In this document: positions 8,217 to 61,868 of the stretch, piece after piece
Layout: the number at the start of each line of letters is the position of its first letter
Position numbering within the stretch: position 1 is the first letter of the stretch
Assembly: GCA_038209995.1 (NCBI GenBank)
Contig: JBBQXD010000003.1
Coordinates: forward strand, 89,079 to 153,078
Direction of reading: 5' to 3'
Length of the DNA: 64,000 nt
From: Candidatus Limnocylindria bacterium
Lineage (GTDB): Bacteria > Chloroflexota > Limnocylindria > QHBO01
The notes under the pieces: model-generated
Told to the model about the DNA's origin: nothing
Databases searched by the model: none
What the model saw: only the letters and a program-made list of their open reading frames with translations
Program-made: the position numbers and the translations under genes

Positions 8217-8264
8217 GGGCGTGCCGTTTGCGCCGGAGCGGAACTAACGACGAAGGAAGGCCCG

Positions 8265-39752: not shown

Positions 39753-39796
39753 CCTGCCATGGGCTCGAGGTACGCGGAGAGCTCGCCGAGGCCCCG

Positions 39797-41710
39797 TCAT
39801 CCCTCTCCACGCGAGGCGCGCAGCTCGGCCATCGCAGCCCTCGCATCGTCGACCGAGCCCTCGTCCTCGATGGTCGTGATGTCGCCCGGGTCACGTCCGA
39901 GCACCACCGCCTTCAGGACCCGCCGCATGATCTTGCCGCTGCGGGTCTTCGGCAGGCTGTCGACGAAGCTGAGCTCGCCGACCACCGCGATGGGCCCCAG
40001 CTCGTCGCGGAGCGTGCGGAGCAGCTCGGCGCGCAGCTCGGTCGATGCCGCTGCACCGGCCTTGAGCACGATGAACGCGGCGATGACCTCGCCGCGCAGC
40101 TCGTTGGGACGCCCCGTGACGCCCGCCTCGGCCACCGCCGGATGGCGCAGGAACGCGGTCTCGACCTCGATCGTGCCGAGGCGATGTGCCGCGACCTTGA
40201 TGATCTCGTCCGCGCGGCCCGCGAACCACGCGTAGCCGTCGTCGTCGATGTGCGCCGCATCGCCGACGTAGTAGACCGACTGCCCGGGGATGCGCTCCCA
40301 GTAGTCCGCGACGTAGCGCTCCGGCTCGCCCCAGAGGGTCGTGATCAGCCCGGGAAACGGGCGGCGGATGATCATGATCCCCTTCTCCCCATTGGGAACC
40401 GGGTCGCCCTCCGGCGTCACCACCGCCGCATCGATCCCCGGCAGCGGGACGCCGGCCGACCCCGGCTTGATGGGCAGCAGCTCGACGCCGTACGGGTTAC
40501 CGAAGATCGGGCCGCCGGTCTCCGTCTGCCACATGTGGTCGATGACCGGGACGCGGCCGCCGAAGACGTGCTCGGCGAGCCACTCCAGCGCCGGCGGGTT
40601 GAGCACCTCGCCGGCGCTGAAGAAGCGCTCGACGCGCGACAGGTCGTGGCGTGCCGGCGGCTCGTCCCCGTGGCGCATGAGCGCGCGGATGGCGGTCGGG
40701 GAGCTGAAGACACCGGTGACGCGCTCCTCGGCCATGATCCGCCACGCGACATCCGTCTCCGGATGGTCGAGCGCGCCCTCGTAGGCGATGGTCGTGCAGC
40801 CGGCGATCAGGGGCGCGTGGACCATGTAGGCGTGGCCGACGATCCAGCCGATGTCCGAGGTGCACCACCAGACATCGTCGGGCACGAGACCGAAGACCCA
40901 GCGCGCCATGCTCGCGATATGGACCTGGTAGCCGCCGTGGCCATGGACCGCGAGCTTGGGACGTGCCGTCGTCCCGGAGGTGGCGAGGATGAATGCCGGA
41001 TCCTCGGCGCGCATGACCTCGTACGCGCCGTCGCTCCCCGGCGCCCCGGCCAGGAGCTGATCCCAGGTTCGGTGCCGCCCGTCGAGCCGTGCCGTCCCGG
41101 GGCGGCGCTCGAGGATGACCACGTGCTCCACCGCCCTGTTGTCCGCCAGCGCGGCATCCATGATCGACGCCAGCTCGACAACCTTCCCCTTGCGATAGGT
41201 CACATCGGCGGTCAGCACGACATGGGAACCCGATGCCCTGATGCGGTCGCCGAGGGCACCGGCGCCGAAGCCGGCGAAGACGACGAGGTGGATCGCGCCG
41301 ATGCGGGTTGTGGCCAGCATCGCGACGATCGACTCGACGCAGGTCGGCATGTAGATCGTCACCCGGTCGCCGCGCTGTACCCCAAGGCTCCGCAGTGCCG
41401 CCGCCACGCGCTGGACGTCGGCCAGGAGCTCGGCATACGTCCGCGTCTCGCGCCCACCGCGCTCGTTGCGGGCGACGAGTGCCAGGCGATCTCCCTGACC
41501 GGCGGCCACGTGGACATCGAGCGCGTTGTAGGCGAGGTTGGTCGTGCCGCCACCGAACCACCGGAACGTCGGTGGGTCCGGCCGCTCCAGCACGTGATCG
41601 GGCGGGTTGAACCAGGCGATCCCCCGCGCGGCGTCCGACCAGAACGTGTCCGGGTCGTCGAGTGCCCCCTGGAGCCAGGCGGCGATGCGCGGTGTCACTG
41701 CTCCGGTCAT
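39797..41710 (-). CDS. AMP-forming acyl-CoA synthetase, acetate/propionate-CoA ligase family (PrpE/AcsA-like)
   Basis: Collinear with Acs-type ligases: FWSDAARGIAWF ... TYAELLADV, the AMP-binding core and the conserved C-terminal Lys region (KTRSGKIMRR). Start at Met100 of the track ORF, with GGAGG upstream. Confidence 0.75.
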   Translation of the reverse strand: MTGAVTPRIAAWLQGALDDPDTFWSDAARGIAWFNPPDHVLERPDPPTFRWFGGGTTNLAYNALDVHVAAGQGDRLALVARNERGGRETRTYAELLADVQRVAAALRSLGVQRGDRVTIYMPTCVESIVAMLATTRIGAIHLVVFAGFGAGALGDRIRASGSHVVLTADVTYRKGKVVELASIMDAALADNRAVEHVVILERRPGTARLDGRHRTWDQLLAGAPGSDGAYEVMRAEDPAFILATSGTTARPKLAVHGHGGYQVHIASMARWVFGLVPDDVWWCTSDIGWIVGHAYMVHAPLIAGCTTIAYEGALDHPETDVAWRIMAEERVTGVFSSPTAIRALMRHGDEPPARHDLSRVERFFSAGEVLNPPALEWLAEHVFGGRVPVIDHMWQTETGGPIFGNPYGVELLPIKPGSAGVPLPGIDAAVVTPEGDPVPNGEKGIMIIRRPFPGLITTLWGEPERYVADYWERIPGQSVYYVGDAAHIDDDGYAWFAGRADEIIKVAAHRLGTIEVETAFLRHPAVAEAGVTGRPNELRGEVIAAFIVLKAGAAASTELRAELLRTLRDELGPIAVVGELSFVDSLPKTRSGKIMRRVLKAVVLGRDPGDITTIEDEGSVDDARAAMAELRASRGEG

Positions 41711-41799
41711 CGGCGAACGCGTGCCTCCGCTCGGGAACGGATGAGCCCCGGGCACGCACCGCGCGCAGCCCGGGGCTCCAGTGGACGTGGGGCGACGGA

Positions 41800-43284
41800 T
41801 CAGCCCGCGAGCGCGCCGCCCGTGGCAGCCTTGTCCTTGGCCGCCGCATCGAGGTCGTCCTGGTGTCCGCCAACTTCGTCCCAGATGCGAACGTCCTTCG
41901 TTTCGTGGATCGCGATGCCGCCCACGATCACGGTCATGACCGCGATCACGATCGGGTACCACAGGCCGGCGAAGATGTGGCCGCCCGGGGTGATGTTGCC
42001 GAGCCATGCCAACCCGCCGCCGACGACCGCTGCGGCAGTGACGGCCGTCGCGATGAACGGGAGCCAGCCGCCGAACTCGCCATTGCCGATGTGATAGGGG
42101 AGTGAGAGCGACGTATAGCGGATCCTGGCGGGGAAGTATTCAACCAGGAACGCGGCGATCGGCCCGTACACCATCGTCACGAACAGGATCATGATGAACA
42201 CCATCGCCGTCAGGCCCAGGATGTTCGGGTTCTGGGCGACCATGATCGCCTTGCCGGTGGCGTCGGTGCCCGGGATCGGGTTCGTGAACCCGTGCATCGC
42301 GTTGAAGATCGGGAAGTAGCTGACCGCCGCGATCAGGCAGCCGCCGAGGATGATCGGCTTGCGGCCGATCTGGTCGGAGAGCCACCCGAAGAAGACGAAG
42401 AACGGCGTCGCCAGCGCGATCGCGACGAGCATCACCGTGTAGGCATCGGTGAATTTGACTCCGAGCGAGGTCTGCATGAAGGACAGGGCGTAGAACTGGC
42501 CGGTGTACCAGACGACCGCCTGCCCGGCGGTCATGCCGAACAGCGCGAGCAGGATGAGGCGCCAGTTGCGGCGGTTGCCCAGGCTGTCACGCAGGGGGGC
42601 GGACGACGTCTTGCCCTGCTCCTTCGCTCGCGTGTACAGCGGTGTTTCCTGCAGCTTGAAGCGGATATACAGGGCGCCCACGACGAGGATCGCGGACAGG
42701 AGGAAGGGAATTCGCCACCCGATCGATGCGAACGTCTCGGGGCCGAGGGTCAGCCGGAAGATCAGGATGACCGCGAGCGCCAGGAAGAGCCCGATGGTGG
42801 CGGTCGTCTGGATCCATGACGTGTAGAGGCCGCGCTTGCGGTCCGGCGCATGCTCGGCGACGTAGATGGCCGCGCCCCCGTACTCACCGCCAAGGGCGAG
42901 GCCCTGCAGCATGCGGAGGGAGACGAGGATGATCGGGGCCAAGATGCCGATCTGCGCGTACCCGGGGAGCAGGCCAACCAGCACGGTCGCGCCGCCCATG
43001 ATCGACACAGTGAGCAGGAAGGCGACCTTGCGCCCGGTCTTGTCGCCGATGCGGCCGAAGACGAGGGCACCGAACGGGCGAACCGCGAACCCGGCGCCGA
43101 ACGTGGCCAGGGCGCTCAGGATCTGGGCCGTGGGATCACCGGGGAAGAAGACGGGCGCGAGAAAGGTGGCCAGGACGGCGTACAGGTAGAAGTCGTACCA
43201 CTCGATCACCGTACCGATCGCTGAGGCACCGATGACGAACGGGATCGAGGTGTTGTACGTCCGGGCGGGGGTCGTGGCTGCCAT
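41800..43284 (-). CDS. MFS metabolite:H+ symporter (MHS family, ProP/KgtP-like)
   Basis: MHS N-terminal signature (IGTVIEWYDFYLYAVLATFLAPVFFP) and GRIGDKTGRK. Start at MAATTP with GAGG 8 nt upstream. Confidence 0.7.
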   Translation of the reverse strand: MAATTPARTYNTSIPFVIGASAIGTVIEWYDFYLYAVLATFLAPVFFPGDPTAQILSALATFGAGFAVRPFGALVFGRIGDKTGRKVAFLLTVSIMGGATVLVGLLPGYAQIGILAPIILVSLRMLQGLALGGEYGGAAIYVAEHAPDRKRGLYTSWIQTTATIGLFLALAVILIFRLTLGPETFASIGWRIPFLLSAILVVGALYIRFKLQETPLYTRAKEQGKTSSAPLRDSLGNRRNWRLILLALFGMTAGQAVVWYTGQFYALSFMQTSLGVKFTDAYTVMLVAIALATPFFVFFGWLSDQIGRKPIILGGCLIAAVSYFPIFNAMHGFTNPIPGTDATGKAIMVAQNPNILGLTAMVFIMILFVTMVYGPIAAFLVEYFPARIRYTSLSLPYHIGNGEFGGWLPFIATAVTAAAVVGGGLAWLGNITPGGHIFAGLWYPIVIAVMTVIVGGIAIHETKDVRIWDEVGGHQDDLDAAAKDKAATGGALAG

Positions 43285-43297
43285 GTTCGCAAACCTC

Positions 43298-43311
43298 AAC
43301 GTGTTGAGAAC
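43298..43311. promoter_or_regulatory. perfect 14-bp palindrome CTCAACGTGTTGAG in the divergent promoter/RBS region
   Basis: Lies between the MHS transporter (-) and acs (+), 14 nt upstream of the transporter start codon and overlapping its RBS. Confidence 0.35.
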
Positions 43312-43556
43312 GAAGGTGACGGTTCCGAAGCTCGGATTCGGTCGTCGCGCGGCCGGGGTCGGCCGGGCATTCATCTCATGCTTTCGGGCCTGCCTCTCTC
43401 CCCTCGGCAGCGGAGCCTTCATGGTGGCTACGACCGGCACGATACACCCGGCGTGCAAGTTCACCGCCCGATGGGCACGCGAACGCCACGCGGCCCGCGG
43501 GTAGAATCTTCCCCGGAGATCCCCCGGAAGATCACGAAACGCAGGAGACGTCCCGC

Positions 43557-45530
43557 ATGAGCGACGAGCAGACCGCGACCCCGGACGCGATCGAGAACCT
43601 CCTCCGCGAGGAGCGCACGTTCGCTCCGTCGGCCGACTTCGTGGCGGAGGCGATCGCCGGCGACGCCGGCATCTACGAACGCACGGCAAGCGAGGAGGGC
43701 TTTCGCGCCTTCTGGACCGAGGAGGGGAACCGGCTCGACTGGATCGAGCCGTGGAGCGAGCTCTACACGTGGGACGCGCCGTATGCACAGTGGTTCATCG
43801 GCGGCAAGCTCAACGTCAGCGCGAACTGCCTGGACCGCCATGTGGCCAACGGGCTGGGCGACCGCGTCGCCTACTTCTGGGAGGGCGAGCCAGGCGACAG
43901 CCGCACGATCACCTACCGCGAGCTCCTCGACGAGGTGTGCCGCTTCACGAACGCCCTGCGGGCGCTGGGGGTGAGGAAGGGCGACCGGGTCGCGATCTAC
44001 ATGCCGATGATCCCCGAGCTGCCGGTCGCTATGCTCGCCTGCAGCCGCATCGGGGCGCCGCACAGCGTGGTGTTCGGCGGCTTTTCCGCAGATGCGCTGG
44101 CGGACCGCATCGAGGATGCGTCGTGCACCGTGGTCATCACCGCCGACGGCGGCTACCGCAAGGGTGCGGCAGTCGCGCTCAAGCACGCCGCCGACGAGGC
44201 GATCGGCCGGACGTCATCGGTCCAGCACTGTGTCGTCGTGCGCCGAACCGGGGCTGACGTCGCCTGGGACGAGGGACGCGACCACTGGTACCACGAGCTC
44301 ATCGCCGAGCAGCCGGCGACCGCGGAGCCGGAGCCGATGGACGCCGAGGACCTCCTCTATCTGCTCTACACCTCCGGGACCACGGCCAAGCCGAAGGGGA
44401 TCATGCACACCACCGGCGGCTACCTGGCCGGCGTGAGCGCCACCCATCGGCTCATCTTCGACCTGCACCCGGAGACCGATGTCTACTGGTGCATGGCCGA
44501 CATCGGCTGGGTGACCGGGCACAGCTACATCGTCTACGGCCCGCTCGCGAACGCCACCACGAGCGTCATCTACGAGGGCGCCATCGACTTCCCGCAGAAG
44601 GACCGATGGGCGCAGATCGTGGCGAAGTACGACGCCACCATCCTCTACACCGCCCCGACCGCCATCCGCGCGCTCATGAAGTACGGCGCCGATGCCTTCG
44701 CCGCCGATGACCTGTCCTCGCTGCGCCTGCTCGGCTCCGTCGGCGAGCCGATCAACCCCGAGGCCTGGGCCTGGTACTGGACTGAGATCGGCGGCGGCCG
44801 CTGTCCGGTCGTCGACACGTGGTGGCAGACCGAGACGGGGATGATCATGATCACGCCGCTCCCCGGGATCACGACCCTCAAGCCGGGGTCGGCGACCTTC
44901 CCGTTTCCCGGCGTGAAGGCCGACGTCGTGGACGAGGCGGGCACATCGGTCCCGCTCGGGCGCGGGGGCTACCTCGTCATTGAGCGCCCCTGGCCCGCGA
45001 TGCTGCGCGGCATCTACGGCGACCCGGAGCGCTACGAGCAGACGTACTGGTCGCGTTACCCCGGTCGCTACTTCCCCGGCGACGGGTGCAAGCGCGACGA
45101 GGAGGGCTACTACTGGCTGCTCGGCCGCGTCGACGACGTCATGAACGTCTCCGGGCACCGCATCTCCACCACCGAGATCGAGTCTGCGCTCGTCTCGCAT
45201 CCGGCGGTCGCGGAGGCAGCCGTCGTGGGGCGCAGCGATCCGATCACCGGCCAGGCCATCTTCTGCTACGTCATCCTGCGCTTCGGCCACGAGCCGTCGG
45301 ATGAGCTCGCCGCAGGCCTGCGCGAGCACGTGGCGGACGTGATCGGCAAGTTCGCGCGCCCCAAGCAGCTCATGTTCACGCCCGATCTGCCGAAGACGCG
45401 CTCCGGCAAGATCATGCGCCGCCTGCTGCGCGACATTGCCGAGCAGCGCAACCTCGGGGACGTCACCACGCTCGCCGACGCGAACGTCGTGCATACGATC
45501 CGCGAGCAGTCCGGGACGGGCGAGGAGTAG
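43557..45530 (+). CDS. acs: acetyl-CoA synthetase (AMP-forming)
   Basis: Canonical Acs N-terminus (NLLREERTFAPSADFVAEA ... WFIGGKLNVSANCLDRH), the YTSGTTAKPKG box, the WWQTETG box and the C-terminal PKTRSGKIMRR. Confidence 0.85.
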   Translation: MSDEQTATPDAIENLLREERTFAPSADFVAEAIAGDAGIYERTASEEGFRAFWTEEGNRLDWIEPWSELYTWDAPYAQWFIGGKLNVSANCLDRHVANGLGDRVAYFWEGEPGDSRTITYRELLDEVCRFTNALRALGVRKGDRVAIYMPMIPELPVAMLACSRIGAPHSVVFGGFSADALADRIEDASCTVVITADGGYRKGAAVALKHAADEAIGRTSSVQHCVVVRRTGADVAWDEGRDHWYHELIAEQPATAEPEPMDAEDLLYLLYTSGTTAKPKGIMHTTGGYLAGVSATHRLIFDLHPETDVYWCMADIGWVTGHSYIVYGPLANATTSVIYEGAIDFPQKDRWAQIVAKYDATILYTAPTAIRALMKYGADAFAADDLSSLRLLGSVGEPINPEAWAWYWTEIGGGRCPVVDTWWQTETGMIMITPLPGITTLKPGSATFPFPGVKADVVDEAGTSVPLGRGGYLVIERPWPAMLRGIYGDPERYEQTYWSRYPGRYFPGDGCKRDEEGYYWLLGRVDDVMNVSGHRISTTEIESALVSHPAVAEAAVVGRSDPITGQAIFCYVILRFGHEPSDELAAGLREHVADVIGKFARPKQLMFTPDLPKTRSGKIMRRLLRDIAEQRNLGDVTTLADANVVHTIREQSGTGEE

Positions 45531-47354: not shown

Positions 47355-47610
47355 ATGACCGATCCATTTTCAGCGTCTCCCGGCCTGCGCCTGTGCCCGC
47401 CGACGATGGCCGACGTGGAGGCGGTCACCGCGCTCGTCAACTTCACCGACGAGCACGACTTCGGCGCTGCCGATCTCGAGGTCACCGGTCGATGCCGGCT
47501 CGACGCGGCTCTACGAATCGGTGGGGATGCATGTCGCCGAGTCGTACGACCAGGTCGAGCGTGAGCTCCGTCCCGGGCGCGACATCGCGGTGAGCGCGCT
47601 CGACGGCTGA
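47355..47610 (+). pseudogene. possible GNAT acetyltransferase remnant (frameshifted, truncated)
   Basis: The first frame reads MTDPF ... VEAVTALVNFTD. The downstream +1 frame reads RLYESVGMHVAESYDQVERELRPG, a typical GNAT C-terminal motif. Too short for an intact GNAT. Confidence 0.25.
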
Positions 47611-47622: not shown

Positions 47623-48504
47623 TCAGTCCTCGAGGTCGGTCATCACCCCTGGCACCGGCGGATGGAGGCGGTCAACGCCCGGGGCAGCGAGGCGGGCATA
47701 GAGGCCGGGCCGCCGGTCGGCGATCGTGTCCCACTCGTGCTCGCCTGGGCGGCGACGGACATGCGTCTGGCGCGCGCGGTCCACGTCCACCTCGCCGACG
47801 AGGAGCTCCTCGTCGGTGTCCGACGCGACCGCGAGCGGCTCGCCGTCGGGGTCGACGAGGACCGAGCGGCCCATGAACGTCGTCCCGCGCTCTGTCCCGA
47901 CCCGATCCGCGGCCAGGACGTAACAGTGGTTCTCGGCGGCCCGCGCCGGCGCGAAGAGGTTCGGGTGGAACGCCACCCCGATCGGCCAGTTCGTCGGCAG
48001 GCAGATGAGATCGGCCCCGTCGAGGGCGCAGATGCGCGCCGCCTCCGGGAAGCGGAGGTCGTAGCAGATGAGGATGCCGATACGCAGCCCCTCGACCTCC
48101 ACCACCATGGGCGGCTCCGGGCCGGGCGTCGTGAAGCGGTCGACGCCGAGGAAGGGGAGGTGCATCTTCCGGTACGTGAGATGCCGGCCATCCGGCGTGG
48201 CGAGGATGGCCGCGTTGAAGACGGCATCGCCCTCCGCCTCGAGCGTGCCGACGATGATGGTCAGCCGATGCGCGGCCGCCAGGCGGCGCACGTGGGCGCC
48301 CGCGATGGCGGTGGCGCGACGGGCGACGGGTCGCGCCTCGTCGAGCGAGGAGAAGGCGTAGCCGGTGACGGCGGCCTCGGGGAGGACCGCCAGGCGCGCT
48401 CCGGCGGCGGCCGCATCGCTCGCCGCGCGTTCGATGCGCTCGAGATTGCCCTCCACCTCGCCGATCTGCGGATCGATCTGGCAGGCCGCCACCCGGATCG
48501 TCAT
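47623..48504 (-). CDS. carbon-nitrogen hydrolase family protein (nitrilase superfamily)
   Basis: IRVAACQIDPQIGEVEGNLERI (E of the triad), a K region and ILICYDLRFPE (catalytic Cys). Start at Met64 of the track ORF. Confidence 0.7.
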   Translation of the reverse strand: MTIRVAACQIDPQIGEVEGNLERIERAASDAAAAGARLAVLPEAAVTGYAFSSLDEARPVARRATAIAGAHVRRLAAAHRLTIIVGTLEAEGDAVFNAAILATPDGRHLTYRKMHLPFLGVDRFTTPGPEPPMVVEVEGLRIGILICYDLRFPEAARICALDGADLICLPTNWPIGVAFHPNLFAPARAAENHCYVLAADRVGTERGTTFMGRSVLVDPDGEPLAVASDTDEELLVGEVDVDRARQTHVRRRPGEHEWDTIADRRPGLYARLAAPGVDRLHPPVPGVMTDLED

Positions 48505-48610
48505 GGCGGCGATGGTACTCGCGTCGCCGGTGGGCGAGGCGAGGCCGCTGCGCCGTGCGCCGGATCGGCCGGCCCGGGGCTTGCCGGGTCGTGCTTGGTA
48601 GACTCGGGCG

Positions 48611-49534
48611 GTGGCAGCGCGCGCGGGTTGGCTGACGCCGGCCGTCTTCCTCACCCTGGGCCTCATCTGGGGCTCGTCGTTCCTGTGGATCAAGATCGCG
48701 CTGCGCGAGATCGGGCCGGCGACTCTCGTCGCGGAGCGGATGACGCTCGGTGCGATCGGGATGGTCGGCTACCTTGCGCTCATCCGACAGCGCCTGCCGC
48801 GAACGGCGCGTGAGCTGGCGCCGCTCGCCGTCGTCGGCCTCATCAACGCCGGCCTGCCGATCTTCCTCATCAGCTGGGGCGAGGTCCACGTGGACTCCGG
48901 CACCGCCGCGGTCCTGAACTCGCTCGTCCCGCTGTTCAGCCTGCTCATCGCCGGAGTCTGGCTGCGCACCGAGCCGGTGACGGCGCTCCGCGTCACCGGC
49001 CTGATCCTCGGCTTCGGTGGCGCCGCGATCCTCGCCAGCCGCGAGCTGTCACTCACCGGGGATCCGCTGGGCCTCGTCGGCGCGGTCGCGGTCGTGCTGG
49101 CGGCAGGCTCCTACGCGCTGGGCGCGAGCTACGCGCGGCATCGGATCACGACCACCCATCGGTATGTCGTCGCCGGCGGGACGCTGGTCTTCGCCGCGAT
49201 CTACCTGTGGGTGCTCGCCCTCATCAGCGAGTGGCCGATCGGCGTGCCGGTGCGCGTGGATGGGATCGTCGCCGTGCTGTGGCTCGGCCTCCTCGGCAGC
49301 TTCGTGGCCTACCTGTGCTACTTCTTCCTCATCGAGCACCTTGGCGCGACTCTGGCGAGCATGGTCACCTATCTCTTCCCGGTCGTGGGCGTGGCCCTGG
49401 GGACGACCTTCCTGAACGAGGCATTCGACATTCGGATGGCGATCGGCACCGTGCTCGTGCTGCTCGGGATCGGGGTGGTCAGCCTTCGCTATGATCCGCG
49501 CGTGAGCCGCGAACCTCGTGGGGCCGGCGAGTGA
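48611..49534 (+). CDS. DMT superfamily transporter (EamA-like, 10 TM)
   Basis: Two EamA repeats ([15 protein letters not shown] ...; [23 protein letters not shown]). Confidence 0.7.
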
Positions 49535-51639
49535 GTGACGCCGGCGACCGCGAACCGCGGCCGGATGACGAGCAGCCGGCCGAAACCGATTGGCCGGCGG
49601 CCGATATGACTCCCCGCTCGCCCGACCCCGACCCACCGTCCGCCGATGACGACTGGGCATGGCCACGTCGCGACCTGCCTCGGGAAGAGGAGGCGGAAGA
49701 CTGGCGCCCCGCGGAGCCGTGGCGCGACAACCCCTCCTGGAACGACACCCCCAGCGACGCCCCGTTGAACCGCGATCCCGAGCCATTCTGGGTACGCGAG
49801 CCGGAGCTGCCGGAACCGCATTCGGCACCGTCCTGGGAGCGCGAGCCGGAGCCGCCGAAACCGGTAGCGGCGCCGTTGTGGGAACCCGAGCCGGAACCAG
49901 ACCCTGAGCCAGAGCCCGAACCTGAGCCCGAACCAGAACCTGAGCCCGAACCAGAACCGGAGCATGCGCCTGCGCCTGCGCCCGAGCCGGAACCGGAACC
50001 ACCGCCGGAGCCCGAGCCGGAACCGGAACCCGAACCCGAACCGGAACCAGAACCCGAGCCCAAACTGGAACCAGCGCCCGAACCGGAAGCCGAGCCAGAG
50101 CCGGAGGGCGCGCCGGAGCCGGTTGCGGAACCAGCGCCCGAGGCTCCGGTAGAGCCTGAGTCCGCGGCACCACCGACACTGGCGGTAGCTGGCGAGCCCG
50201 CGCCCGAAACTGCCGCTGAACCCGAGCCCACGCCACATGAGCCGGTGGCCCCGGAAGAGGCACCGCCCAAGCGGCCCACGTGGGAGGCGGACGTCGAATC
50301 GAAGCCGGGCTTCGCTGAACCAGCACCGGAAGCAGCAGCCGCCCATCCGACAGCGGCGCCCGCCCCGTCTCCGGTGGTCGTGCCGCCCGTCCCCGTGGAG
50401 GTAGAGGCCGCCACCCAGGCTCCCTGGTCAGCGCCGGTGGAGGACATGCCGGCAATCGAGGGTGGCCACCCGCGGATGACCTGGGATCGGCGCCGGATGG
50501 GAGAGCGCCGCAGGCCGACGACCTCGGAGCAGGCCGTGCCGTGGCTCATCGGGATCGTCCTGGCGATGGCCGGCATCGTGCTCGTCCTCCTTGCCCTCAT
50601 CTACACCTCCGAGAACGGGCACCTTACGACGGTAAGCGGGTCGCCGTCGGCGGGGTCGTCGATCGTCGTCGTGCCGAGTGAAGGCAGTGGCGCGGCGGCG
50701 GCATCCGCCTCGCCGACCGACGGCGCGAGCACGACGGCCAGTCCATCGGCCCTCGGGCCGACGTACGGCGCCCTGGAGATGATCTACCTCAGCCGCACCA
50801 TCGCCTCGGCGCCGATCTACGTGTTCCGCCGTGACTTCAGCGTCACCCAGGAGGCAGAGACCCTCGCCCGGGCCGACCAGGGCGTCGAGCAATTTGCCTG
50901 GGCGCCCGACGGCCGCATCGGCGCGGGGCTCATCTCCGGCCGCGTCCTGGCGCTCCAGCCCGGACACGCTGCCCGCGCGCTCGGAGACGGCATGGTCGAC
51001 ATCTCGTTCAGCACCGACTCGCGGACCGTGTACGCGGTCCGTGTCACCCGCAATGGCGCGAACGACAAGGCCGACGTCGTCGCGGTCGAGTGGGCAACCG
51101 GAGCCCAGCGCACCGTCGGGTCGGTGACCTATCCACATCCCCAGGTAGTGGCCGACCCGGCCCTGAAGGAGGCGCAGTTCATCGACGATGGCGGGCTGGT
51201 GCGGCTCTACCCGACGGTCGACAACCGCCTCGTGCTCTGGATCCTCGGCGCGCCGTCGACCTACCTGGTAAGCGCCGCTGGCGGCTCGCTGGCGCCGATC
51301 GCCGGCCTGCCGAAGCTGGTCTCGCCGGACGACCAGTGGACGGTGCAGGTCAAGGAGTCCAAGGGCACGACGACGCTGACGCTCGCCGACCGCGCCGGAA
51401 GCGCGCGTGCCGCGACGAGCATCACCGGCCTCGTCAGCCACATTCGTTGGGCGCCGAACGGCTCGGAGGTCGCGTTCACGCTCGGGCATACCGGCCAGAA
51501 CGGTGGCGTTGTCCAGAATCTCTACGTCTGGGACCTCGTCGACGCCAAGGCGCCGATCGAGATCACGAGCAACGGCGCCTCCTTCGGCGCCGAATGGCGT
51601 GGTGCCGCGGTAAGGTGGGTCAGTGAGCCCGCGTCCTGA
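49531..51639 (+). CDS. single-pass membrane protein with an N-terminal acidic (Glu-Pro)n low-complexity region and a C-terminal beta-propeller-like (TolB/PD40-like) domain
   Basis: About 35 EP dipeptide repeats with Trp-containing W-x-x-P-E-P motifs (aa 1-330). Basic stretch plus TM ([24 protein letters not shown]). Then about 340 aa with repeated beta-strand-rich blocks. ATGA overlap with the upstream EamA gene. Confidence 0.6.
49890..50100. repeat. hexanucleotide tandem repeat tract (GARCCN)n inside the CDS, encoding (EP)n
   Basis: gagcccgaaccagaacctgagcccgaacc ... . Near-perfect 6-nt periodicity over about 210 nt. Confidence 0.7.
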
Positions 51640-51961
51640 GATCGTCAATCCCATCGGCGTCGAGCTCGATGAGACCGCGCGCCGCATGCGGATCCGATGG
51701 GATGACGGCCACCTCGGCGAGTGGGGCTGGACCGAGCTCCGACGCGCGTGTCCGTGCGCCCTGTGCGCCGGCGAGGGCAGCATGCCCGGCCTCGTATCGC
51801 TCGAGACGGCATTCACCGCACCCCAGGTGACGCTCGAGCGGGTGAAATGGATCGGGCGCTATGCCCTCGCCCCGATCTGGGCCGATGGCCACGACACCGG
51901 GCTCTTCACGTACCTGCGGCTGCGCGAGCTCTGCGCCTGCCCGGAGCACGGCGCCGCATGA
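51623..51961 (+). CDS. DUF971 domain protein (gamma-butyrobetaine hydroxylase N-domain-like)
   Basis: 112 aa with a conserved CxC ... C pattern ([13 protein letters not shown] ... CACPEHG) and a W/H-rich core typical of DUF971. Overlaps the upstream stop. Confidence 0.55.
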
Positions 51962-52785
51962 CGACGCGGTTCCGCGAGCCGTTCACGCTCGCGCTCGGCG
52001 GGGGCGGGGCGCGCGGCTGGGCGCACATCGGCGTGGCGCGCGCCCTCGAATCGGCCGCGCTGCGCCCGGCATCGATCGTGGGCACCAGCATGGGCGCCGT
52101 CGTCGGGGCCGGCCTCGCCGCCGGGTACCCGACCTCCCGCATCGAGGAGGTCGCGCGCCGCGTGCCGGTCTATCGGCTCATCGGCCGCCGGGGGCGCTAC
52201 GCGCTCTTCGACAGCCGGCCGGTGCTCGAGGTGATGGGCCGCGAGCTCGGCAATCCGCGGATCGAGGAGCTCGGGCTGCCGTTCGCGATCACGACCTTCG
52301 ACCTCGTGACCGGCTCGACGATCGCGATTCGCGAGGGCGATCTCGTCGACGCGCTGGCGCGCAGCATCGCGGTGCCGCTCTTCTTCCCGCCGACGCACGA
52401 CGACGACGGCGTGTGGTGCGACGCCGGACCGTGGGAGGCGGTGCCGATCAGCGTGGCCCGCGATCTGTGGCCCGGGCGGCCGGTGATGGGCGTGCGGGTG
52501 GACGCCCCGAAGCCATCGCTGCTGGGCAGTCCACTCGGCTCGCGCGTGCTGCGCGCCGTGGCGGGGCGCCTCGGCGAGGCGGGCGAGGCGCTCACCGCGC
52601 GGCGGTACGTCGCGCTCCTCGCGGCGCGCTGGGCGGACCCGGTCCACGAGGAGCCGGCCGACCTCCTCATCGAGCCGAAGCTCGGCATGACGAGCGCGTG
52701 GCAGTTCAGCCGCGTCGGACCGATGGTGGAGCGCGGCGAGCGCGACGCCCGGGCCGCGCTGCGGGAGGCATCGGTCCATGGCTGA
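51958..52785 (+). CDS. patatin-like phospholipase
   Basis: Oxyanion hole GGGGARG and nucleophile elbow GTSMG, with a later DGG/DAG catalytic Asp (WCDAG). ATGA overlap with DUF971. Confidence 0.75.
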   Translation: MTTRFREPFTLALGGGGARGWAHIGVARALESAALRPASIVGTSMGAVVGAGLAAGYPTSRIEEVARRVPVYRLIGRRGRYALFDSRPVLEVMGRELGNPRIEELGLPFAITTFDLVTGSTIAIREGDLVDALARSIAVPLFFPPTHDDDGVWCDAGPWEAVPISVARDLWPGRPVMGVRVDAPKPSLLGSPLGSRVLRAVAGRLGEAGEALTARRYVALLAARWADPVHEEPADLLIEPKLGMTSAWQFSRVGPMVERGERDARAALREASVHG

Positions 52786-53734
52786 TGGTGGTGGGCTCCT
52801 CCTCGTCCATGCCCATCCCGACGACGAGGCGATGGGCACCGGCGGCCTGATCGCCACGACCGTCGATGCCGGGCGACGGGTCGATCTCGTCACCTGCACC
52901 GATGGCGCCGAGGGCGAGATCCACGACCCGACCCTCGACCACGACGAGGCCCGCCCCCGGCTGGCGGCGATCCGGCGCGAGGAGCTCGCCTGCTCGCTCG
53001 ACGCCCTCGGCGCGGGGCGCGTGAACCTGCACCTGCTCGGCTACCGCGACTCCGGGATGATGGGCACCGAGGCCAACGAGCACCCCGACTCGTTCTGGAA
53101 GTCCGACCTCGACGAGGCGATCGGGCGCGTGGTGCGCATCGTTCGTGAGGTGCGGCCGGCGGTGATGGTCGGCTACGACAGCAAAGGCGGGTACGGGCAC
53201 CCCGATCACATCAATGCACACCGCGTGGCGGTGGGGGCGTTCGAGGCGGCCGCTGACGGGTCGCGCTACCCGGAGGCCGGGTCCCCCCACGAGGTCGCGA
53301 AGCTCTACGAGACCGCGTTCGCCCGCGAGGCCCGGTTCCGCCTCATGACGGCCATGAAGGAGCGTGGCATCACGCTGCCATGGGACTTCGACGAGGCCAT
53401 CGAGCAGTACGCCGCCGACGAGCTCAACCCGTCCAATGCCGCCCCGGTTCAGCAGGCTGGGGAGCAGCTCGCGGCGGGGGAGGAGGTTACGGGGTTCGGC
53501 ACCTCGGAGGCGGACATCTCGACGACCGTCGACGTCTCGGCGGTCGCCGGTCGGAAACGCGCCTGCATGGCCTGCCACCGCACCCAGGCCCAGGATCTGG
53601 GCTGGCTGCTGGCCCTGCCCGACGATCTCGCTGCCGGCGCGCTCAGCCCCGAGACGTTCGTGCTCCGTCGCTGGCCCGGCCACGAGCCGATCGACCCTGG
53701 CTTGCGCGAGACGCGCGTCTTCGCGGGGCTGTAG
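52778..53734 (+). CDS. PIG-L/LmbE family N-acetylglucosaminyl deacetylase (MshB/Mca-like)
   Basis: Hallmark LLVHAHPDDE, then HPDH (GYGHPDHINAH) zinc ligands. 8-nt overlap with the patatin gene. Confidence 0.75.
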   Translation: MADGGGLLLVHAHPDDEAMGTGGLIATTVDAGRRVDLVTCTDGAEGEIHDPTLDHDEARPRLAAIRREELACSLDALGAGRVNLHLLGYRDSGMMGTEANEHPDSFWKSDLDEAIGRVVRIVREVRPAVMVGYDSKGGYGHPDHINAHRVAVGAFEAAADGSRYPEAGSPHEVAKLYETAFAREARFRLMTAMKERGITLPWDFDEAIEQYAADELNPSNAAPVQQAGEQLAAGEEVTGFGTSEADISTTVDVSAVAGRKRACMACHRTQAQDLGWLLALPDDLAAGALSPETFVLRRWPGHEPIDPGLRETRVFAGL

Positions 53735-53777: not shown

Positions 53778-53889
53778 GTCAGCCGTATGTCGTGACAGTG
53801 TGCGTCACATGCTGCGCGTGACAGCGTGCGTCAGCCGTATGTCGTGACAGTGTGCGTCACATGCTGCACGTGACAGCGTGCGTCACGAG
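53778..53889. repeat. tandem palindromic repeat element (2 x 52 nt unit plus partial), GTGAC-N7-GTCAC family
   Basis: gtcagccgtatgtcgtgacagtgtgcgtcacatgctgc(g/a)cgtgacagcgtgc occurs twice, then gtcacgag. Shares the core cgtgacagcgtgc(g/c)tcac ... gtgcgtcacgag with the repeat at 20171-20259. Confidence 0.7.
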
Positions 53890-53981
53890 GGAAGCCCGAC
53901 AGCAGGAAGAGGCCGCCTGGACGCTCGCATCCCGAGTCCACCGGCGTATGCTCGGAGACCCATGGAGGAGATGACTGACTG

Positions 53982-54638
53982 ATGTCCGGCCGCTCCATCG
54001 GGCTGTCGCCCGAGCTCCACGATTACCTCATGCGCGTCGGGGTGCGCGAGCCGGCCGTCCTCGAGGGCCTGCGGACCGATACCGCCTCGCATCCCCAGGC
54101 GCAGATGCAGATCGCGCCCGAGGAAGGTGCCCTGCTCGCGCTCCTCGCGCGTCTCACCGGCGCGCGGCGCATCCTGGAGATCGGCACCTTCACCGGTTAC
54201 AGCAGCACGGCGATGGCGCTGGCGCTGCCGCCGGGTGGCGCGGTGGTGTGCTGCGACATCAGCGAAGAGTTCACCGCTCGGGCGCGGCAGGCGTGGCGCG
54301 ACGCCGGGGTCGACGAGCGCGTCGAGCTGCGCATCGGTCCGGCCGTGGAGACCCTCGAGGGGCTGCTCGCCGAAGGCGTGCCGTTCGACATGGCCTTCAT
54401 CGACGCCGACAAGCCGAACTACGGCGCCTACTACGAGGCCTGCGTGGCCCTCGTGCGGCCTGGCGGCCTGATCTGCATCGACAACGTCCTGTGGTCGGGA
54501 CGGGTGGCCGACGCGGCCGACACCGATGCCTCGACCAAGGCGATCCGGGCCATTAACGCGCGGATCGCGTCCGACGAGCGGGTCGATGTCGCGATGGTGC
54601 CGATCGCCGACGGCCTGACCCTGGCCCGCGTCCGCTGA
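53982..54638 (+). CDS. class I SAM-dependent O-methyltransferase (caffeoyl-CoA OMT-like)
   Basis: SAM motif ILEIGTFTGYSS, then DFAFIDADK-type (DMAFIDADKPNY) and DNVLW segments. Confidence 0.75.
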   Translation: MSGRSIGLSPELHDYLMRVGVREPAVLEGLRTDTASHPQAQMQIAPEEGALLALLARLTGARRILEIGTFTGYSSTAMALALPPGGAVVCCDISEEFTARARQAWRDAGVDERVELRIGPAVETLEGLLAEGVPFDMAFIDADKPNYGAYYEACVALVRPGGLICIDNVLWSGRVADAADTDASTKAIRAINARIASDERVDVAMVPIADGLTLARVR

Positions 54639-58156: not shown

Positions 58157-59158
58157 TCAGGTGAGGCTGGTCGGGATCTCATCGACGGCGACGGTTCGCC
58201 GCTCGACGTGGGACCGGGTGGCGGCGACGGCGATCCGCATCGCCTCCACGCCGTCGCGGGCATTCGACGCCGGCGCGCGCTCGCCACGCGCGGCGGCCAG
58301 GAACGCGGTGAGCTCCGCCCGGTAGGCCACGGTGAAACGCTCGAGGTAGCCCGACCAGGCGGCGGCGCGGCCCGCGGCATCCGGCCAGTCGAGATGCGTG
58401 GCCGGGGTCCGCGGCGAGAGCCCCGCCGTCGCGGCCACGCCATCGGCGAGGACCTCGGCTCGGATGTCGTAGCCGCCGGGGTGCAGCCAGCTCGCCGAGA
58501 GGACCGCGAGTGCGCCGCCGGAGAGGCGCATGGTGACGATCGCGCTCTCGATGCCGCGCGGGTCAGCGGGCCGCGCCTGGTCGCGGCGGCTCGCCTCCAC
58601 CGCCACGGTCGCGACCTCCTGGCCGGTGACCCAGCGCACCACGTCGAAATCGTGGATCGACGAGTCGCGGAAGATCGGCGCCACCTCGGAGCGCGGCCAC
58701 CCATCGAGGGCCGGCGGCTCGAAGCGCGGATCGAAGGCGGTGAGGCGCACGAGATGGATGCGGTGTCCGGCGACCGCCTCGCGCAGGGCGACGAAGCCGG
58801 GGTCGTGGCGCCGCTGGAAGCCGAGCTCGACGTGCGTGCCCGCCGTCGCGCGCTCGGCGAGTGCGATCGAGGAGGCGAGCGCATCGGTCAGCGGCTTCTC
58901 GCACAGGACGTGGATGCCGCGTGCGAGCGCCTCCTCGACCGCGGCGGCGTGGTATTCGGGCGGCGTGGCGACGATGACCGCCTCGGCCCGCTCCATCGCC
59001 TTCTCGAGACCGATGGCGCTGCCGCCCACCCGCTCCGCGACCATCGCCGCCCGGGCCGTGTCCACGTCGACGACGAGCAGCTCGACGTCGGGCATGGCGC
59101 CCAGCAGCTCGGCGTGCAGCGCCCCCATGCTGCCCGCACCGATGACCGCGACCCTCAT
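58157..59158 (-). CDS. Gfo/Idh/MocA family oxidoreductase (inositol 2-dehydrogenase-like)
   Basis: Rossmann MRVAVIGAGSMGALHA and the conserved EKP motif (VLCEKPL). Confidence 0.7.
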   Translation of the reverse strand: MRVAVIGAGSMGALHAELLGAMPDVELLVVDVDTARAAMVAERVGGSAIGLEKAMERAEAVIVATPPEYHAAAVEEALARGIHVLCEKPLTDALASSIALAERATAGTHVELGFQRRHDPGFVALREAVAGHRIHLVRLTAFDPRFEPPALDGWPRSEVAPIFRDSSIHDFDVVRWVTGQEVATVAVEASRRDQARPADPRGIESAIVTMRLSGGALAVLSASWLHPGGYDIRAEVLADGVAATAGLSPRTPATHLDWPDAAGRAAAWSGYLERFTVAYRAELTAFLAAARGERAPASNARDGVEAMRIAVAATRSHVERRTVAVDEIPTSLT

Positions 59159-60051
59159 CGGTCCAGCCGTGCGATGCCCGTCCGCAGCGCCTCCATCCCG
59201 ATGCGCGCCGCGTCGACCGGTGGCAGCCACGAGGAGTCCTGCTCGACCATCAGCCAGCCCGGGTAGTCGCGGGCGCCCAGCGCGACCAGCACGCCGCCGA
59301 GGTCGAGCATCCCGTTGCCGGGCTCGGTGAAGATCCGCTCGCGTACCGCGCCCATGAAGCCGTCGATCTCGCCGGCCCGCAGCCGTGCCAGGACGGCCGG
59401 GTCAACGTCCTTGACGTGGACGTGGGTGACGAGCTCGCCGTAGTCGCGAAGCGCCGTCACCGGGTCGCCACCGCCGACGATGAAGTGCCCGACGTCGAGG
59501 CAGATCCCGGCACCCGTGCCGGCGAGGCGGCCCGCCAGCGCGTCGACCTCGTCGGGCGCCTCGATGAAGGTGGCGGTGTGCGGGTGGAACGTGACCTTCA
59601 CCCCGTCCGGGGCGGTCGTGGCCAGCTCGCCGAGGAGCGCCGCGAGATCGTCGAAGGCGGTGGCCGGCCAGCGTGGCGCGCCCTCCGCCACGCGGCCGCT
59701 CCAGCGATCCCGCTCGCCGCCGCCGTCGAGGGCCACGTTGAGCACCTCGCCGTGCGCGGCGATCAGGCGCCCGAGGTCCCGCCGCGCGATGTCGCCGGCG
59801 CCGGGCGCGAGGCCGTCGGCATCGGAGTCGATCGCCGAGTAGAGCTCCGCGAAGCGCAGGCCGCGGCGGCGCAACTCGCCGCGGAGCGGCTCGCCCTCCG
59901 GGAAGCCGCGGCCGTGCTGCGTGCCCTGGTAGCCGAGCGCCACGTACGCGTCGAGGATCTCCGCGTACGGCACCGCGGGGCCGAGGTCGGGCAGGTCGAC
60001 GTTGTTCCAGACGATCGGGACGCAGCCGATCGGCGCGCCGGCGAGGCTCAT
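59155..60051 (-). CDS. sugar phosphate isomerase/epimerase (xylose-isomerase-like TIM barrel; IolE/IolI-like)
   Basis: TIM-barrel metal-site pattern (HPHTATF ... DVGHF ... E). ATGA overlap with the downstream Gfo/Idh/MocA gene. Confidence 0.6.
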   Translation of the reverse strand: MSLAGAPIGCVPIVWNNVDLPDLGPAVPYAEILDAYVALGYQGTQHGRGFPEGEPLRGELRRRGLRFAELYSAIDSDADGLAPGAGDIARRDLGRLIAAHGEVLNVALDGGGERDRWSGRVAEGAPRWPATAFDDLAALLGELATTAPDGVKVTFHPHTATFIEAPDEVDALAGRLAGTGAGICLDVGHFIVGGGDPVTALRDYGELVTHVHVKDVDPAVLARLRAGEIDGFMGAVRERIFTEPGNGMLDLGGVLVALGARDYPGWLMVEQDSSWLPPVDAARIGMEALRTGIARLDR

Positions 60052-61826
60052 CGCACCTGCTCCTCCAACCGGCCGCGCAGCTGCTCCTCGTGCGCCGGGC
60101 GGCCCTCAGGGACCGGCACGTCCCACCAACCGGTCTTGTCAGGTCCGGCCACGGCCAGCTCGCGATCCACGCGCACGTGGACGAGCGACGGCCCGCCGGA
60201 TGCCAGGCCGCGTTCGACGGCGGGCCGCACGTCGGCAGCCACATCGGCGAACTCAGCGTGGATGCCAAAGGCGCGACCGATGGCCGCGAAGTCCGGCGAG
60301 TACGGACTGCCATCGCGGAGGAAGTCGGTCGCCGCGGTGCGTCCGAAGTGCGCCTGCTGGCCGCCCTTGATGCTGATCCACCCCGAGTTGTCGAGCACCA
60401 CCGTGCAGACCGGCGTGCCGAGCATCGCCGCGCTGGCGAGCTCCTGCATGGTCTGCAGAAAATCGCCATCGCCGCAGATCGCCAGCACCTGCGCATCGGG
60501 CCGCGCGAGCTGAGCGCCGATCGCGGCGGGGAGCGTGAAGCCCATGGTCGAGAAGCCGCCCGAGGTGATGTGCGTTCGCGGCTGCCGCGTCACCCAGCGC
60601 TGCTTCACCATCCCCTGCGGCAGCCCGGCGCCGGTCACGACGATCGCGTCGTCCCGGGTCGCCGCCTGCACCTCGCGCACGGCGCGCGCCATGGTCATCG
60701 GTGCGGCCTCGGAGCCCGATTTGACCTCCACCTGCTCCTCCCACGCCGTCCGCAGCTTCGCGATCTCCTCCCCGTGGACCGATGCGGGCGCGCCGCGCCC
60801 GAGCGCGGCAACGAGGTCCGCGAGCCCGCTGCGTGCGTCGCCGACGAGCGGCACCGTGGCCGGGTACGTCTTCCCGATCTCGCGCGGGTCGATCTCGAGC
60901 TGGATGAGCTGCGTCGGCGGAATCGCGAACGTCACGCCGGCCCGCCACGACGAGGCGGACCAGTCGACGAAGCGGCAGCCGACCGAGAGGATCACGTCCG
61001 CGGACGCGGCCAGCGCGTTGCCGATCGTCGAGCCGGTGTCGCCGATCGTCTGCCCGGCCAGCGGATGGGTCTCGTCGATCGCCCCCTTGCCGTTCCAGGT
61101 CGTGACCACCGGCGCGCCGAGCCGCTCGGCGAGGGCGCGCAGCTCCGGCGTGGCATCAGCCGAGATCACCCCGCCGCCGGCGATGATGACCGGCCGCTTC
61201 GCGGTGGTCAGCAGCCGCGCGGCGCGCTCGACGAGGTCGGCGTCGGGTCGCGGGCGGCCCCCTGGCGGCACCTCGCGGAGCGTGACCTCGGCCGCATCGG
61301 CCTGCACGTCCATCGGCACGTCCAGCAGCACCGGTCCCGGTCGGCCGCTGCGCATGGCGTGCCAGGCGCGGTCGAGGACGAACGGCAGCTCGTCGACCCG
61401 CGACGGCTGCCACCACTCCTTGACGACCGGCTCGAAGATGCGCGGGTTGTCGGCCACGTGGCGGCGCTCGAGCTCCTGGAGCAGGCCGCGGCCGCGCAGG
61501 TAGGTGTGCGGCGAGCCGGTGAACAGCGCCACCGCGGTCGAGTCGACGTACGCCGTCGCCATCCCGATCACCGTGTTCGTCGCGCCCGGACCGATGCTCG
61601 TGAACGCCACCATCGGCTCACCGCTGGCGCGGTAGTACCCGTCGGCGAGGTGCACGGCCGATTGCTCGTGCATGACCTGCACGGTGCGGATCGCGTCGGC
61701 GCGGTCGAGGAGCGCGTCGGTGAGCGTCCAGCAGCCGTGGCCCGGGATGCCGGCGGCGAAGCGGACGCCCTGGCGAACCAGGTGCTCCACGACGACCTGG
61801 GCGCCCGTCAGGCGCTGGGGTGGCAT
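60048..61826 (-). CDS. thiamine-pyrophosphate-dependent enzyme (IolD / acetolactate-synthase-like)
   Basis: N-terminal Pyr domain (GIPGHG ... ), central domain and C-terminal TPP-binding GDGDF motif (ICGDGDFLQTMQELASAA ... N). Overlaps the IolE-like gene. Confidence 0.7.
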   Translation of the reverse strand: MPPQRLTGAQVVVEHLVRQGVRFAAGIPGHGCWTLTDALLDRADAIRTVQVMHEQSAVHLADGYYRASGEPMVAFTSIGPGATNTVIGMATAYVDSTAVALFTGSPHTYLRGRGLLQELERRHVADNPRIFEPVVKEWWQPSRVDELPFVLDRAWHAMRSGRPGPVLLDVPMDVQADAAEVTLREVPPGGRPRPDADLVERAARLLTTAKRPVIIAGGGVISADATPELRALAERLGAPVVTTWNGKGAIDETHPLAGQTIGDTGSTIGNALAASADVILSVGCRFVDWSASSWRAGVTFAIPPTQLIQLEIDPREIGKTYPATVPLVGDARSGLADLVAALGRGAPASVHGEEIAKLRTAWEEQVEVKSGSEAAPMTMARAVREVQAATRDDAIVVTGAGLPQGMVKQRWVTRQPRTHITSGGFSTMGFTLPAAIGAQLARPDAQVLAICGDGDFLQTMQELASAAMLGTPVCTVVLDNSGWISIKGGQQAHFGRTAATDFLRDGSPYSPDFAAIGRAFGIHAEFADVAADVRPAVERGLASGGPSLVHVRVDRELAVAGPDKTGWWDVPVPEGRPAHEEQLRGRLEEQVR

Positions 61827-61868
61827 GGCTCGATTCTATCGGCCGCCACCTGGTGCGATCATTGGTCC

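Follow-up and report, generated by a model that had tools for sequence, protein, structure and literature searches.

In a 64,000-nucleotide (nt) stretch of contig JBBQXD010000003.1 from Candidatus (Ca.) Limnocylindria (hereafter the window; position 1 is its first letter), we identified an operon that joins a membrane protein with a beta-propeller, here called X, to a small DUF971 protein, a patatin-like acyl hydrolase and a PIG-L family deacetylase. This is a translationally coupled and vertically inherited operon specific to Ca. Limnocylindria, and it is very likely that it is real and conserved. Its conserved unit is X-DUF971-PIG-L; patatin, a downstream O-methyltransferase (OMT) and an upstream EamA exporter are facultative. 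The component families are all known, and the new element is a distinct PIG-L subfamily in obligatory coupling with DUF971 and a membrane protein that carries a propeller. No described system of like composition was found in the literature searched, in keeping with an earlier sequence-only reading of this DNA, which had known of none. The operon and its facultative members are laid out as follows:

48611 to 49534, + strand: EamA-family (DMT) exporter with 10 transmembrane segments, facultative upstream member (Pfam EamA, 127.8 bits)
49531 to 51639, + strand: X, an open reading frame (ORF) of 702 amino acids (aa) from the ORF list, without any Pfam domain
49531 to 50544, + strand: X residues 1-338, predicted cytoplasmic, acidic, Pro/Glu-rich disordered tail (composition, tandem repeats)
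50545 to 50613, + strand: X residues 339-361, single transmembrane helix (hydropathy, AlphaFold2 (AF2) model)
50776 to 51639, + strand: X residues ~416-702, predicted extracytoplasmic TolB-like beta-propeller, after a Ser/Ala/Thr/Pro-rich linker (362-415)
51623 to 51961, + strand: DUF971 / GBBH-like_N small protein, 112 aa, start GTG (Pfam PF06155, 69.3 bits against a threshold of 22.8)
51958 to 52785, + strand: patatin-like acyl hydrolase, 275 aa, cytoplasmic, start ATG (Pfam PF01734, 90.2 bits against 27.7)
52778 to 53734, + strand: PIG-L family Zn-dependent deacetylase/amidase, 318 aa, cytoplasmic (Pfam PF02585, 97.1 bits against 28.2)
53982 to 54638, + strand: class I cation-dependent OMT, Methyltransf_3, 218 aa, facultative downstream member (Pfam PF01596, 214.8 bits)

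Conservation and coupling of the operon

Read from the sequence, X and DUF971 overlap by 17 nt (51623-51639, with the X stop at 51637-51639), DUF971 and patatin meet in a common ATGA (51958-51961), and the last 8 nt of patatin are also the first of PIG-L (52778-52785). The sequence-only reading had described these three overlaps correctly, and the EamA, X, DUF971, patatin and PIG-L ORFs were all found on the + strand where it had placed them. Its account of the EamA/X junction as a further ATGA needs correction: the junction is GTGA, the GTG of X (49531-49533) lying over the TGA of EamA (49532-49534). All four protein families had been called rightly, including the propeller that is predicted to face outward. 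By hydropathy, hydrophobic segments are absent from DUF971, patatin, PIG-L and OMT, leaving X as the sole membrane protein of the core; EamA has approximately 10 such segments.

Conservation was followed in two samples. One comprised long contigs bearing PIG-L, patatin or DUF971 orthologues, whose neighbourhoods were annotated with Pfam; the other comprised 80 metagenome loci found with a DUF971 alignment and analysed by tblastn. X lies upstream of DUF971 in 57 of 57 loci and PIG-L downstream of it in 42 of 43. The spacing from X to DUF971 has a median of -4 nt and is at most 30 nt in 80 of 82 cases. From DUF971 to patatin the median is again -4 nt (49/49), and from patatin to PIG-L it is -11 nt, with an overlap in 40 of 42. 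Because these three medians hold over approximately 80 loci, the tight coupling is beyond chance. Of 83 loci, 47 have patatin, in every case in the slot between DUF971 and PIG-L, and where it is absent DUF971 and PIG-L are joined directly at a median of -4 nt. That this overlap is re-formed at patatin loss argues for selection on coupled expression. The core is kept intact across 37% (PIG-L) and 49% (X) divergence. Spacing from PIG-L to OMT is looser (median +26 nt, maximum ~1 kb), and OMT is a close neighbour of PIG-L (at most 1.1 kb away) in 16 of 29 loci; EamA precedes X in eight of the 16 loci with enough upstream sequence.

Neighbourhood conservation had been set beforehand as the test of the proposal that the window holds a tightly coupled four-gene operon. 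Co-occurrence is conserved in the Limnocylindria loci, and chance adjacency was not borne out. The conserved, coupled operon thus stands, but the four-gene unit does not, as patatin is present in little more than half of the loci and the core comprises three genes.

A scan of GTDB genomes with the PIG-L alignment returned at least one close relative, locus L007, and at least 79 distant MshB/Mca-like loci, which served as negative controls. Among the matches listed, DUF971, patatin, X and OMT were found near none of 79 such distant loci, which come from Actinomycetota, other Chloroflexota, Dormibacterota and others. Nearly all named relatives of the four proteins come from metagenome-assembled genomes (MAGs) labelled 'Candidatus Limnocylindria' or 'Chloroflexota', and a few MAGs bear other phylum labels (e.g. 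L007, 'Methylomirabilota').

Properties of the encoded proteins

The closest relatives of the PIG-L protein are MshB (Rv1170, the deacetylase of N-acetylglucosamine-inositol, GlcNAc-Ins) and Mca (Rv1082, mycothiol S-conjugate amidase) of Actinomycetota, which gave the best matches by sequence, hidden Markov model (HMM) and structure. It aligns to Mycobacterium tuberculosis MshB (4EWL, 1Q74) with an E-value of 2.4e-32 and retains both the HPDD and GHPDH motifs and residues equivalent to R68, D95, M98 and Y142 of MshB. Across 53 members of the subfamily H13, D15, D91, Y139, H141, D143 and H144 are invariant and D16 and R66 are conserved in at least 90%; all nine are invariant in a 14-sequence alignment. 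In the published structures of M. tuberculosis MshB (1Q74 and 4EWL) the Zn ligands are His13, Asp16 and His147 and the catalytic residues Asp15 and His144; Tyr142 and the substrate contacts Arg68 and Asp95 complete this set, all of which has its counterpart in the window protein. The AF2 model (pLDDT 88) has MshB as its best structural match (TM-score 0.70-0.79), and the top Foldseek matches are all MshB (E 5e-19 to 2e-16, TMq 0.65-0.72), placing the protein in the MshB fold.

The sequence-only reading had assigned this protein to the MshB/Mca family of deacetylases. The family, the motifs and the fold agree with that assignment, but both curated cut-offs are missed: the score is 216.0 bits against 224.35 for the MshB equivalog (TIGR03445) and 192.8 bits against 277.15 for Mca (TIGR03446), and the orthologues at L003 and L004 reach 208.8 and 205.4 bits with TIGR03445. 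In view of these scores and of a pathway context that is still putative, we file the protein as neither MshB nor Mca. Its sequence and model suggest a distinct MshB/Mca-like subfamily that would act as MshB or Mca does. It has the metal and catalytic motifs in common with these enzymes, and like them is soluble and cytoplasmic. It differs from them by its sub-cut-off scores, by a subfamily insertion of ~30-60 aa at approximately residues 185-245 with the conserved motifs RGIxLPWDF and LNPxN, by its Chloroflexota host and by its constant coupling to DUF971 and a propeller protein, an arrangement seen at none of the distant control loci. Neither MshA nor MshC was found among the ORFs scanned nearby. 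The GlcNAc-phosphatidylinositol (GlcNAc-PI) de-N-acetylase of eukaryotes and archaea (PIG-L, step 2 of the glycosylphosphatidylinositol (GPI) pathway) belongs to the same Pfam family, PF02585, and de-N-acetylation of a lipid-linked GlcNAc-inositol at the cytoplasmic face, followed by acyl editing, would parallel the acyl hydrolase and membrane protein of the operon. The window protein lacks the membrane anchor of GPI-pathway PIG-L, having no hydrophobic segment (maximum 19-residue Kyte-Doolittle value 0.96), and its sequence is much nearer to MshB than to anything else; the operon neighbourhood has neither a PIG-A-like transferase nor a PI synthase.

The DUF971 protein, a putative zinc-finger protein, has an invariant CxCxxC...H motif (C43, C45, C48, H90). 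By motif comparison these four residues correspond to the zinc site of gamma-butyrobetaine hydroxylase (GBBH), and they are presumed to bind metal. A second invariant motif, CxCxEH (C104, C106, H109), lies at the C-terminus; it is not in PDB 3LUU, to which the protein is related at E 1.2e-11, and it reads CxCxxC in the next-closest relatives, P0395 and P0397. From its sequence this motif may be a second metal site. The CxCxxC...H motif and the domain family are common to stand-alone DUF971 proteins (PDB 3LUU and those of Shewanella and Pseudomonas, e.g. PP_5002) and to the N-terminal Zn domain of GBBH, and most relatives also stand alone, at 100-130 aa; the extra C-terminal CxCxEH sets the Limnocylindria subfamily apart. 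This subfamily forms its own 50%-identity cluster, with only two representatives at E<=1e-30. The neighbourhoods of relatives at 44-49% identity are unrelated to the operon (GT87/PurS; DUF2382/GFO_IDH; signal peptidase). Mean pairwise divergence is 17% for DUF971, compared with 37% for PIG-L and 49% for X. Proteobacterial DUF971 is tied to iron-sulfur (Fe-S) cluster maintenance, and outside this lineage bacteria with mutated DUF971 show cobalt and paraquat sensitivity (10.1101/072470; PMC12041740); cofitness links the stand-alone proteins to Fe-S maintenance (10.1101/072470), not to a PIG-L enzyme. DUF971 fusion proteins were considered as a Rosetta-stone link and rejected, the two long matches, P0392 and P0393, being frameshift or chimeric artefacts.

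DUF971 and patatin of the window are ordinary members of their Pfam families. In patatin the GGGxRG (G14-R19), GTSMG (G42-T-S44-M-G46) and DxG (D155-x-G157) motifs are invariant in 17 orthologues, and the enzyme is predicted from these residues to be catalytically intact. Its best NCBIfam match is RssA and its closest solved relative is the patatin domain of PlpD (E 5e-23), and the Ser-Asp dyad and oxyanion motif of these enzymes are intact. It differs from them in falling far below the RssA equivalog cut-off (NF007623, 64.6 bits against 272), in lacking the POTRA and beta-barrel secretion domains of PlpD and in being set by overlaps between DUF971 and PIG-L. Presence of patatin is scattered over the neighbour-joining tree of PIG-L, and its pairwise distances correlate with those of PIG-L (r=0.81). 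Given this co-divergence and patchy distribution, patatin looks like an ancestral member that was lost many times rather than a recent insertion. At L132 a patatin remnant of approximately 55 aa lies between DUF971 and PIG-L (4330-4494).

Only 235 members of the X family are detectable. Residues 1-335 contain 28% Pro and 20% Glu with a net charge of -66, and Tandem Repeats Finder (TRF) reports approximately 39 copies of a GAGCCG-type hexamer, the (EP)n repeats being encoded at ~49881-50122; the EP repeats noted in the sequence-only reading are thus present. The tail ends in a conserved basic juxtamembrane motif, with the arginine cluster RRRMGERRR before the transmembrane segment. Residues ~339-361 are the sole 19-residue window with a Kyte-Doolittle value above 1.6 (3.15), and AF2 predicts a helix for it, at residues 2-22 of the modelled construct. 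With the arginine cluster on the N-terminal side, the positive-inside rule predicts an N-in/C-out topology that would place the propeller outside the cell. Homologues vary greatly in tail length and are alike in EP-rich acidic composition, with a common N-terminal M[ST]D...DWP start; at L178 the N-terminal ORF of X overlaps the EamA stop by the same 4 nt. The similarity of the tails and the L178 overlap make the long ORF from 49531 credible. Long antisense and alternative-frame ORFs cover the EP-repeat region (49479-50600 on the - strand and 49659-49907), including a GS-rich ORF of 373 aa; these are by-products of the GAGCCG-type repeat and not genes. The likeness of X to TolB of the Tol-Pal system is limited to the propeller: X lacks the N-terminal domain of TolB and instead has a disordered acidic cytoplasmic tail and an N-terminal transmembrane anchor. 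The TolB HMM (NCBIfam TIGR02800) does not match the window protein and gives 21.2 bits with the L004 orthologue against a cut-off of 343. Chloroflexota are generally regarded as single-membrane bacteria without Tol-Pal.

A possible role in envelope glycoconjugate metabolism

Our favoured and still tentative reading is that the module may handle an envelope or membrane-proximal glycoconjugate. It would act at the cytoplasmic membrane face on a GlcNAc-alpha-linked inositol-type glycoconjugate bound for the cell surface, from which PIG-L would remove an N-acetyl or N-acyl group and patatin, where present, an ester-linked acyl chain. DUF971 could assist the amidase or the X tail as a partner or adaptor that depends on metal, and X would tie the process to the outer face of the membrane. 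Four observations led us to this reading: 4-nt overlaps link a membrane protein, its propeller outside, with two soluble proteins of the cytoplasm; each loss of patatin is accompanied by a new DUF971/PIG-L overlap; the commonest accessory gene encodes an intact lipid acyl hydrolase; and the residues with which MshB handles GlcNAc-inositol are retained in the amidase. The envelope lipid or glycolipid remodelling that the sequence-only reading had suggested comes close to this scheme and is plausible, if unproven. The data establish the order, coupling and conservation of the genes, the folds, the intact catalytic motifs and the predicted topology; the substrate, lipid or other, any physical complex and the envelope role are what we infer from them.

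Several findings weigh against this reading. No glycosyltransferase, PI-synthase or other lipid-synthesis gene was found within ~10 kb in any of the annotated neighbourhoods. PIG-L is closest to MshB and Mca, enzymes that act on soluble substrates, and the many losses of patatin mean that any lipid step is dispensable. The unrelated contexts of the DUF971 relatives and the link to Fe-S maintenance suggest a general role for that protein. Finally, gene order in the long-contig loci is conserved well beyond the operon (AcsA, DtxR, CN hydrolase, LysA-like, HisPhos), and with synteny this wide in the lineage, synteny alone is weak evidence of common function.

A bolder reading, which we consider improbable, is that Limnocylindria make a glucosamine (GlcN)-inositol compound, either a mycothiol-like thiol or a GlcN-PI-type glycolipid of the surface, with DUF971 as a dedicated partner subunit of PIG-L that the propeller protein tethers to the membrane.

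Alternative explanations

The operon might instead serve low-molecular-weight thiol metabolism, with PIG-L as an Mca-like enzyme or a second MshB-like paralogue of a mycothiol-like system, EamA exporting a mercapturate or cysteine-derived product, DUF971 linking thiol and Fe-S homeostasis, and X and patatin as bystanders; we think it somewhat unlikely that this set of roles holds. The host is a member of the Chloroflexota and not an actinomycete, which bears on any argument from mycothiol. The two top NCBIfam models, MshB and Mca, give nearly equal scores (216/193 bits here, 205/204 in L004), though both equivalog cut-offs are missed. The Limnocylindrales MAG L011 holds two further PIG-L paralogues (7989-8834; 1786-2547 on the - strand), one of which passes the MshB cut-off (240.8 against 224.35 bits) and lies no more than 5 kb from a cystathionine beta-synthase and an enzyme of the cystathionine gamma-synthase/lyase family. 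This resembles the MshB and Mca pair of actinomycetes and hints at a mycothiol-like pathway in the class; MshA and MshC were not found in the scanned ORFs of the window (28 of ~60 candidates) or in a partial scan of the fetched flanks. A full-length MshD-like gene lies two to seven genes upstream of X in L001, L003, L177 and L178, with a further copy in L131. This adjacency is real in the closest relatives, yet an MshD-like gene is adjacent in two of the 16 sampled loci and is reduced to a deletion remnant in the window, and we did not retain it as support. The EamA family includes cysteine and O-acetylserine exporters (a weak match), and the cobalt and paraquat sensitivity of DUF971 mutants elsewhere would also fit (10.1101/072470; PMC12041740). 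The thiol explanation leaves the invariant coupling to X, and the patatin, unaccounted for. The literature searched held no paper reporting mycothiol in Limnocylindria or linking mycothiol to Chloroflexota genomes, and no relevant link of patatin with MshB; a 2026 paper on Limnocylindria genomics does not mention thiols, inositol, phospholipase or deacetylase.

It is similarly doubtful that the genes form a functionally mixed operon, co-transcribed without a single pathway and held together by phylogenetic inertia, in which DUF971 would be a general Fe-S or metal factor, OMT a housekeeping enzyme, and PIG-L, patatin and X proteins of unrelated roles. The far-reaching synteny of the long-contig loci, the restriction of the arrangement to one lineage and the coming and going of patatin, OMT and EamA are all consistent with such inertia. 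So are the absence of a DUF971-PIG-L link from the distant PIG-L loci and from the DUF971 relatives at 44-49% identity, and the low divergence of DUF971 relative to its neighbours, as for a general-purpose protein. Against this, the X-DUF971-PIG-L triad is never broken in ~80 loci while its flanks rearrange, start/stop overlaps are kept at every internal junction, and the DUF971/PIG-L overlap returns after the loss of patatin. Salvage of amino sugars or cell-wall fragments, in which the propeller binds wall glycan and PIG-L de-N-acetylates imported GlcNAc fragments in the manner of archaeal diacetylchitobiose deacetylases, appears very unlikely. PD40/TolB-type propellers often bind envelope components, and in both structure and sequence MshB is followed as best match by diacetylchitobiose deacetylases and BC1534; these matches are, however, far weaker than those to MshB (E 1e-5 against 1e-32; TM-score 0.55 against 0.70-0.72), and the cluster has no sugar transporter, kinase or NagB-type gene in the annotated loci. 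We give the least credence, close to none, to an anti-phage or stress-effector system with patatin as a membrane-degrading effector. Patatin has weak generic matches (22-29 bits) to models of CBASS and other defence phospholipases, but the PADLOC-DB 2.0 models match none of X, DUF971 and PIG-L, and OMT gives only a methyltransferase-domain match; a known defence system was rejected, as no single PADLOC-DB 2.0 system had a multi-component match. The operon also lacks a sensor or cyclase partner and sits at a stable chromosomal site that is inherited vertically, among housekeeping genes and with a composition like that of the rest of the window, and the supposed effector is its dispensable member.

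Neighbouring genes and repeats

The window has a GC content of 71%. An Rfam scan gave no match to a riboswitch or other RNA anywhere in the window, and a promoter and terminator scan gave nothing usable in sequence of this GC content. Two further features flank the operon:

47623 to 48505, - strand: CN hydrolase, divergent and outside the operon (Pfam CN_hydrolase, 170.6 bits; start estimated from 293-aa orthologues)
53778 to 53907, no strand assigned: array of four palindromic GTGACAGYGTGCGTCAC copies with a 26-bp period, inside the 247-nt PIG-L/OMT spacer

In 14 of 16 loci X is preceded by a divergently transcribed carbon-nitrogen (CN) hydrolase gene, with orthologues of 291-303 aa. Beside it in the window, at 47355-47604, is a deletion remnant of an MshD-like double-GNAT gene, which retains residues ~3-41 and 290-325 of a 325-aa orthologue in different frames; the gene is intact in L001, L177 and L178, where it scores 84-104 bits with TIGR03448, below the cut-off of 163. 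At 48506-48610 the window is without the 174-aa helix-turn-helix regulator (- strand) of its closest relatives (L177 5071-7617; L178 5097-6674), and the FrsA-like hydrolase gene of L178 is also missing between CN hydrolase and EamA. As these two genes are just ~100 bp apart, the window genome appears to have a trimmed version of the region.

The array downstream of PIG-L separates OMT from the operon in the window genome. Its palindromic core, GTGACAGYGTGC[GC]TCAC, occurs in four copies at the 26-bp period, and two more copies lie in another intergenic region (20173-20224, 35-bp spacing), against a chance expectation of ~0.02 matches. The core was found in none of 176 fetched related loci and is thus specific to the window genome; this dispersed repeat could be an operator array or a repetitive extragenic palindromic (REP)-like element.

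In L004 (9759-13349), L168 (12563-16108), L169 (13570-17127) and several metagenome loci the operon is usually followed by a gene for a protein of ~1,100-1,200 aa with a double zinc ribbon, an adenylate/guanylate cyclase domain and AAA_16 (STAND), which directly follows PIG-L where OMT is missing. Its best NCBIfam match is a TOMM kinase/cyclase fusion (222 bits, below the cut-off). At L167 (11140-12452) the gene calls cover just 196 aa of PIG-L and 111 aa of OMT; these fragments could be pseudogenes or assembly frameshifts. In the window, 4.5 kb downstream of the operon, myo-inositol catabolism genes occupy 58157-63745, with iolG-, iolE- and iolD-like genes on the - strand (below cut-offs) and IolB on the + strand (221 bits, above the cut-off of 205). 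This adjacency is not conserved in most relatives; L167 has GFO_IDH_MocA/LacI-type and AP_endonuc_2 genes ~7-9 kb downstream, which are candidate iol-type genes. The iolG/E/D/B cluster was not seen in most related loci and was not used as functional evidence. Upstream, at 35852-45530, lies an acetate/C2 assimilation cluster with isocitrate lyase, a LysR regulator, a major facilitator superfamily (MFS) metabolite/H+ symporter and a pair of acetyl-CoA synthetase paralogues that score 693 and 999 bits with PRK00174; AcsA is within the extended synteny of the relatives.

Implications

Limnocylindria are abundant, uncultured Chloroflexota of soil and freshwater with almost no experimentally characterised genes. 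If the genes proved functionally unrelated, this would be merely a well-conserved operon of ordinary enzymes. To date GlcN-inositol chemistry is associated with Actinomycetota, or with eukaryotes and archaea, and a GlcN-inositol compound made with DUF971 as the partner of PIG-L would, if true, give DUF971 its first biochemical role. Three questions become testable through the operon: does GlcNAc-inositol chemistry, as thiol or glycolipid, occur outside Actinomycetota, what is the biochemical role of DUF971, and how do these bacteria build their cell surface?

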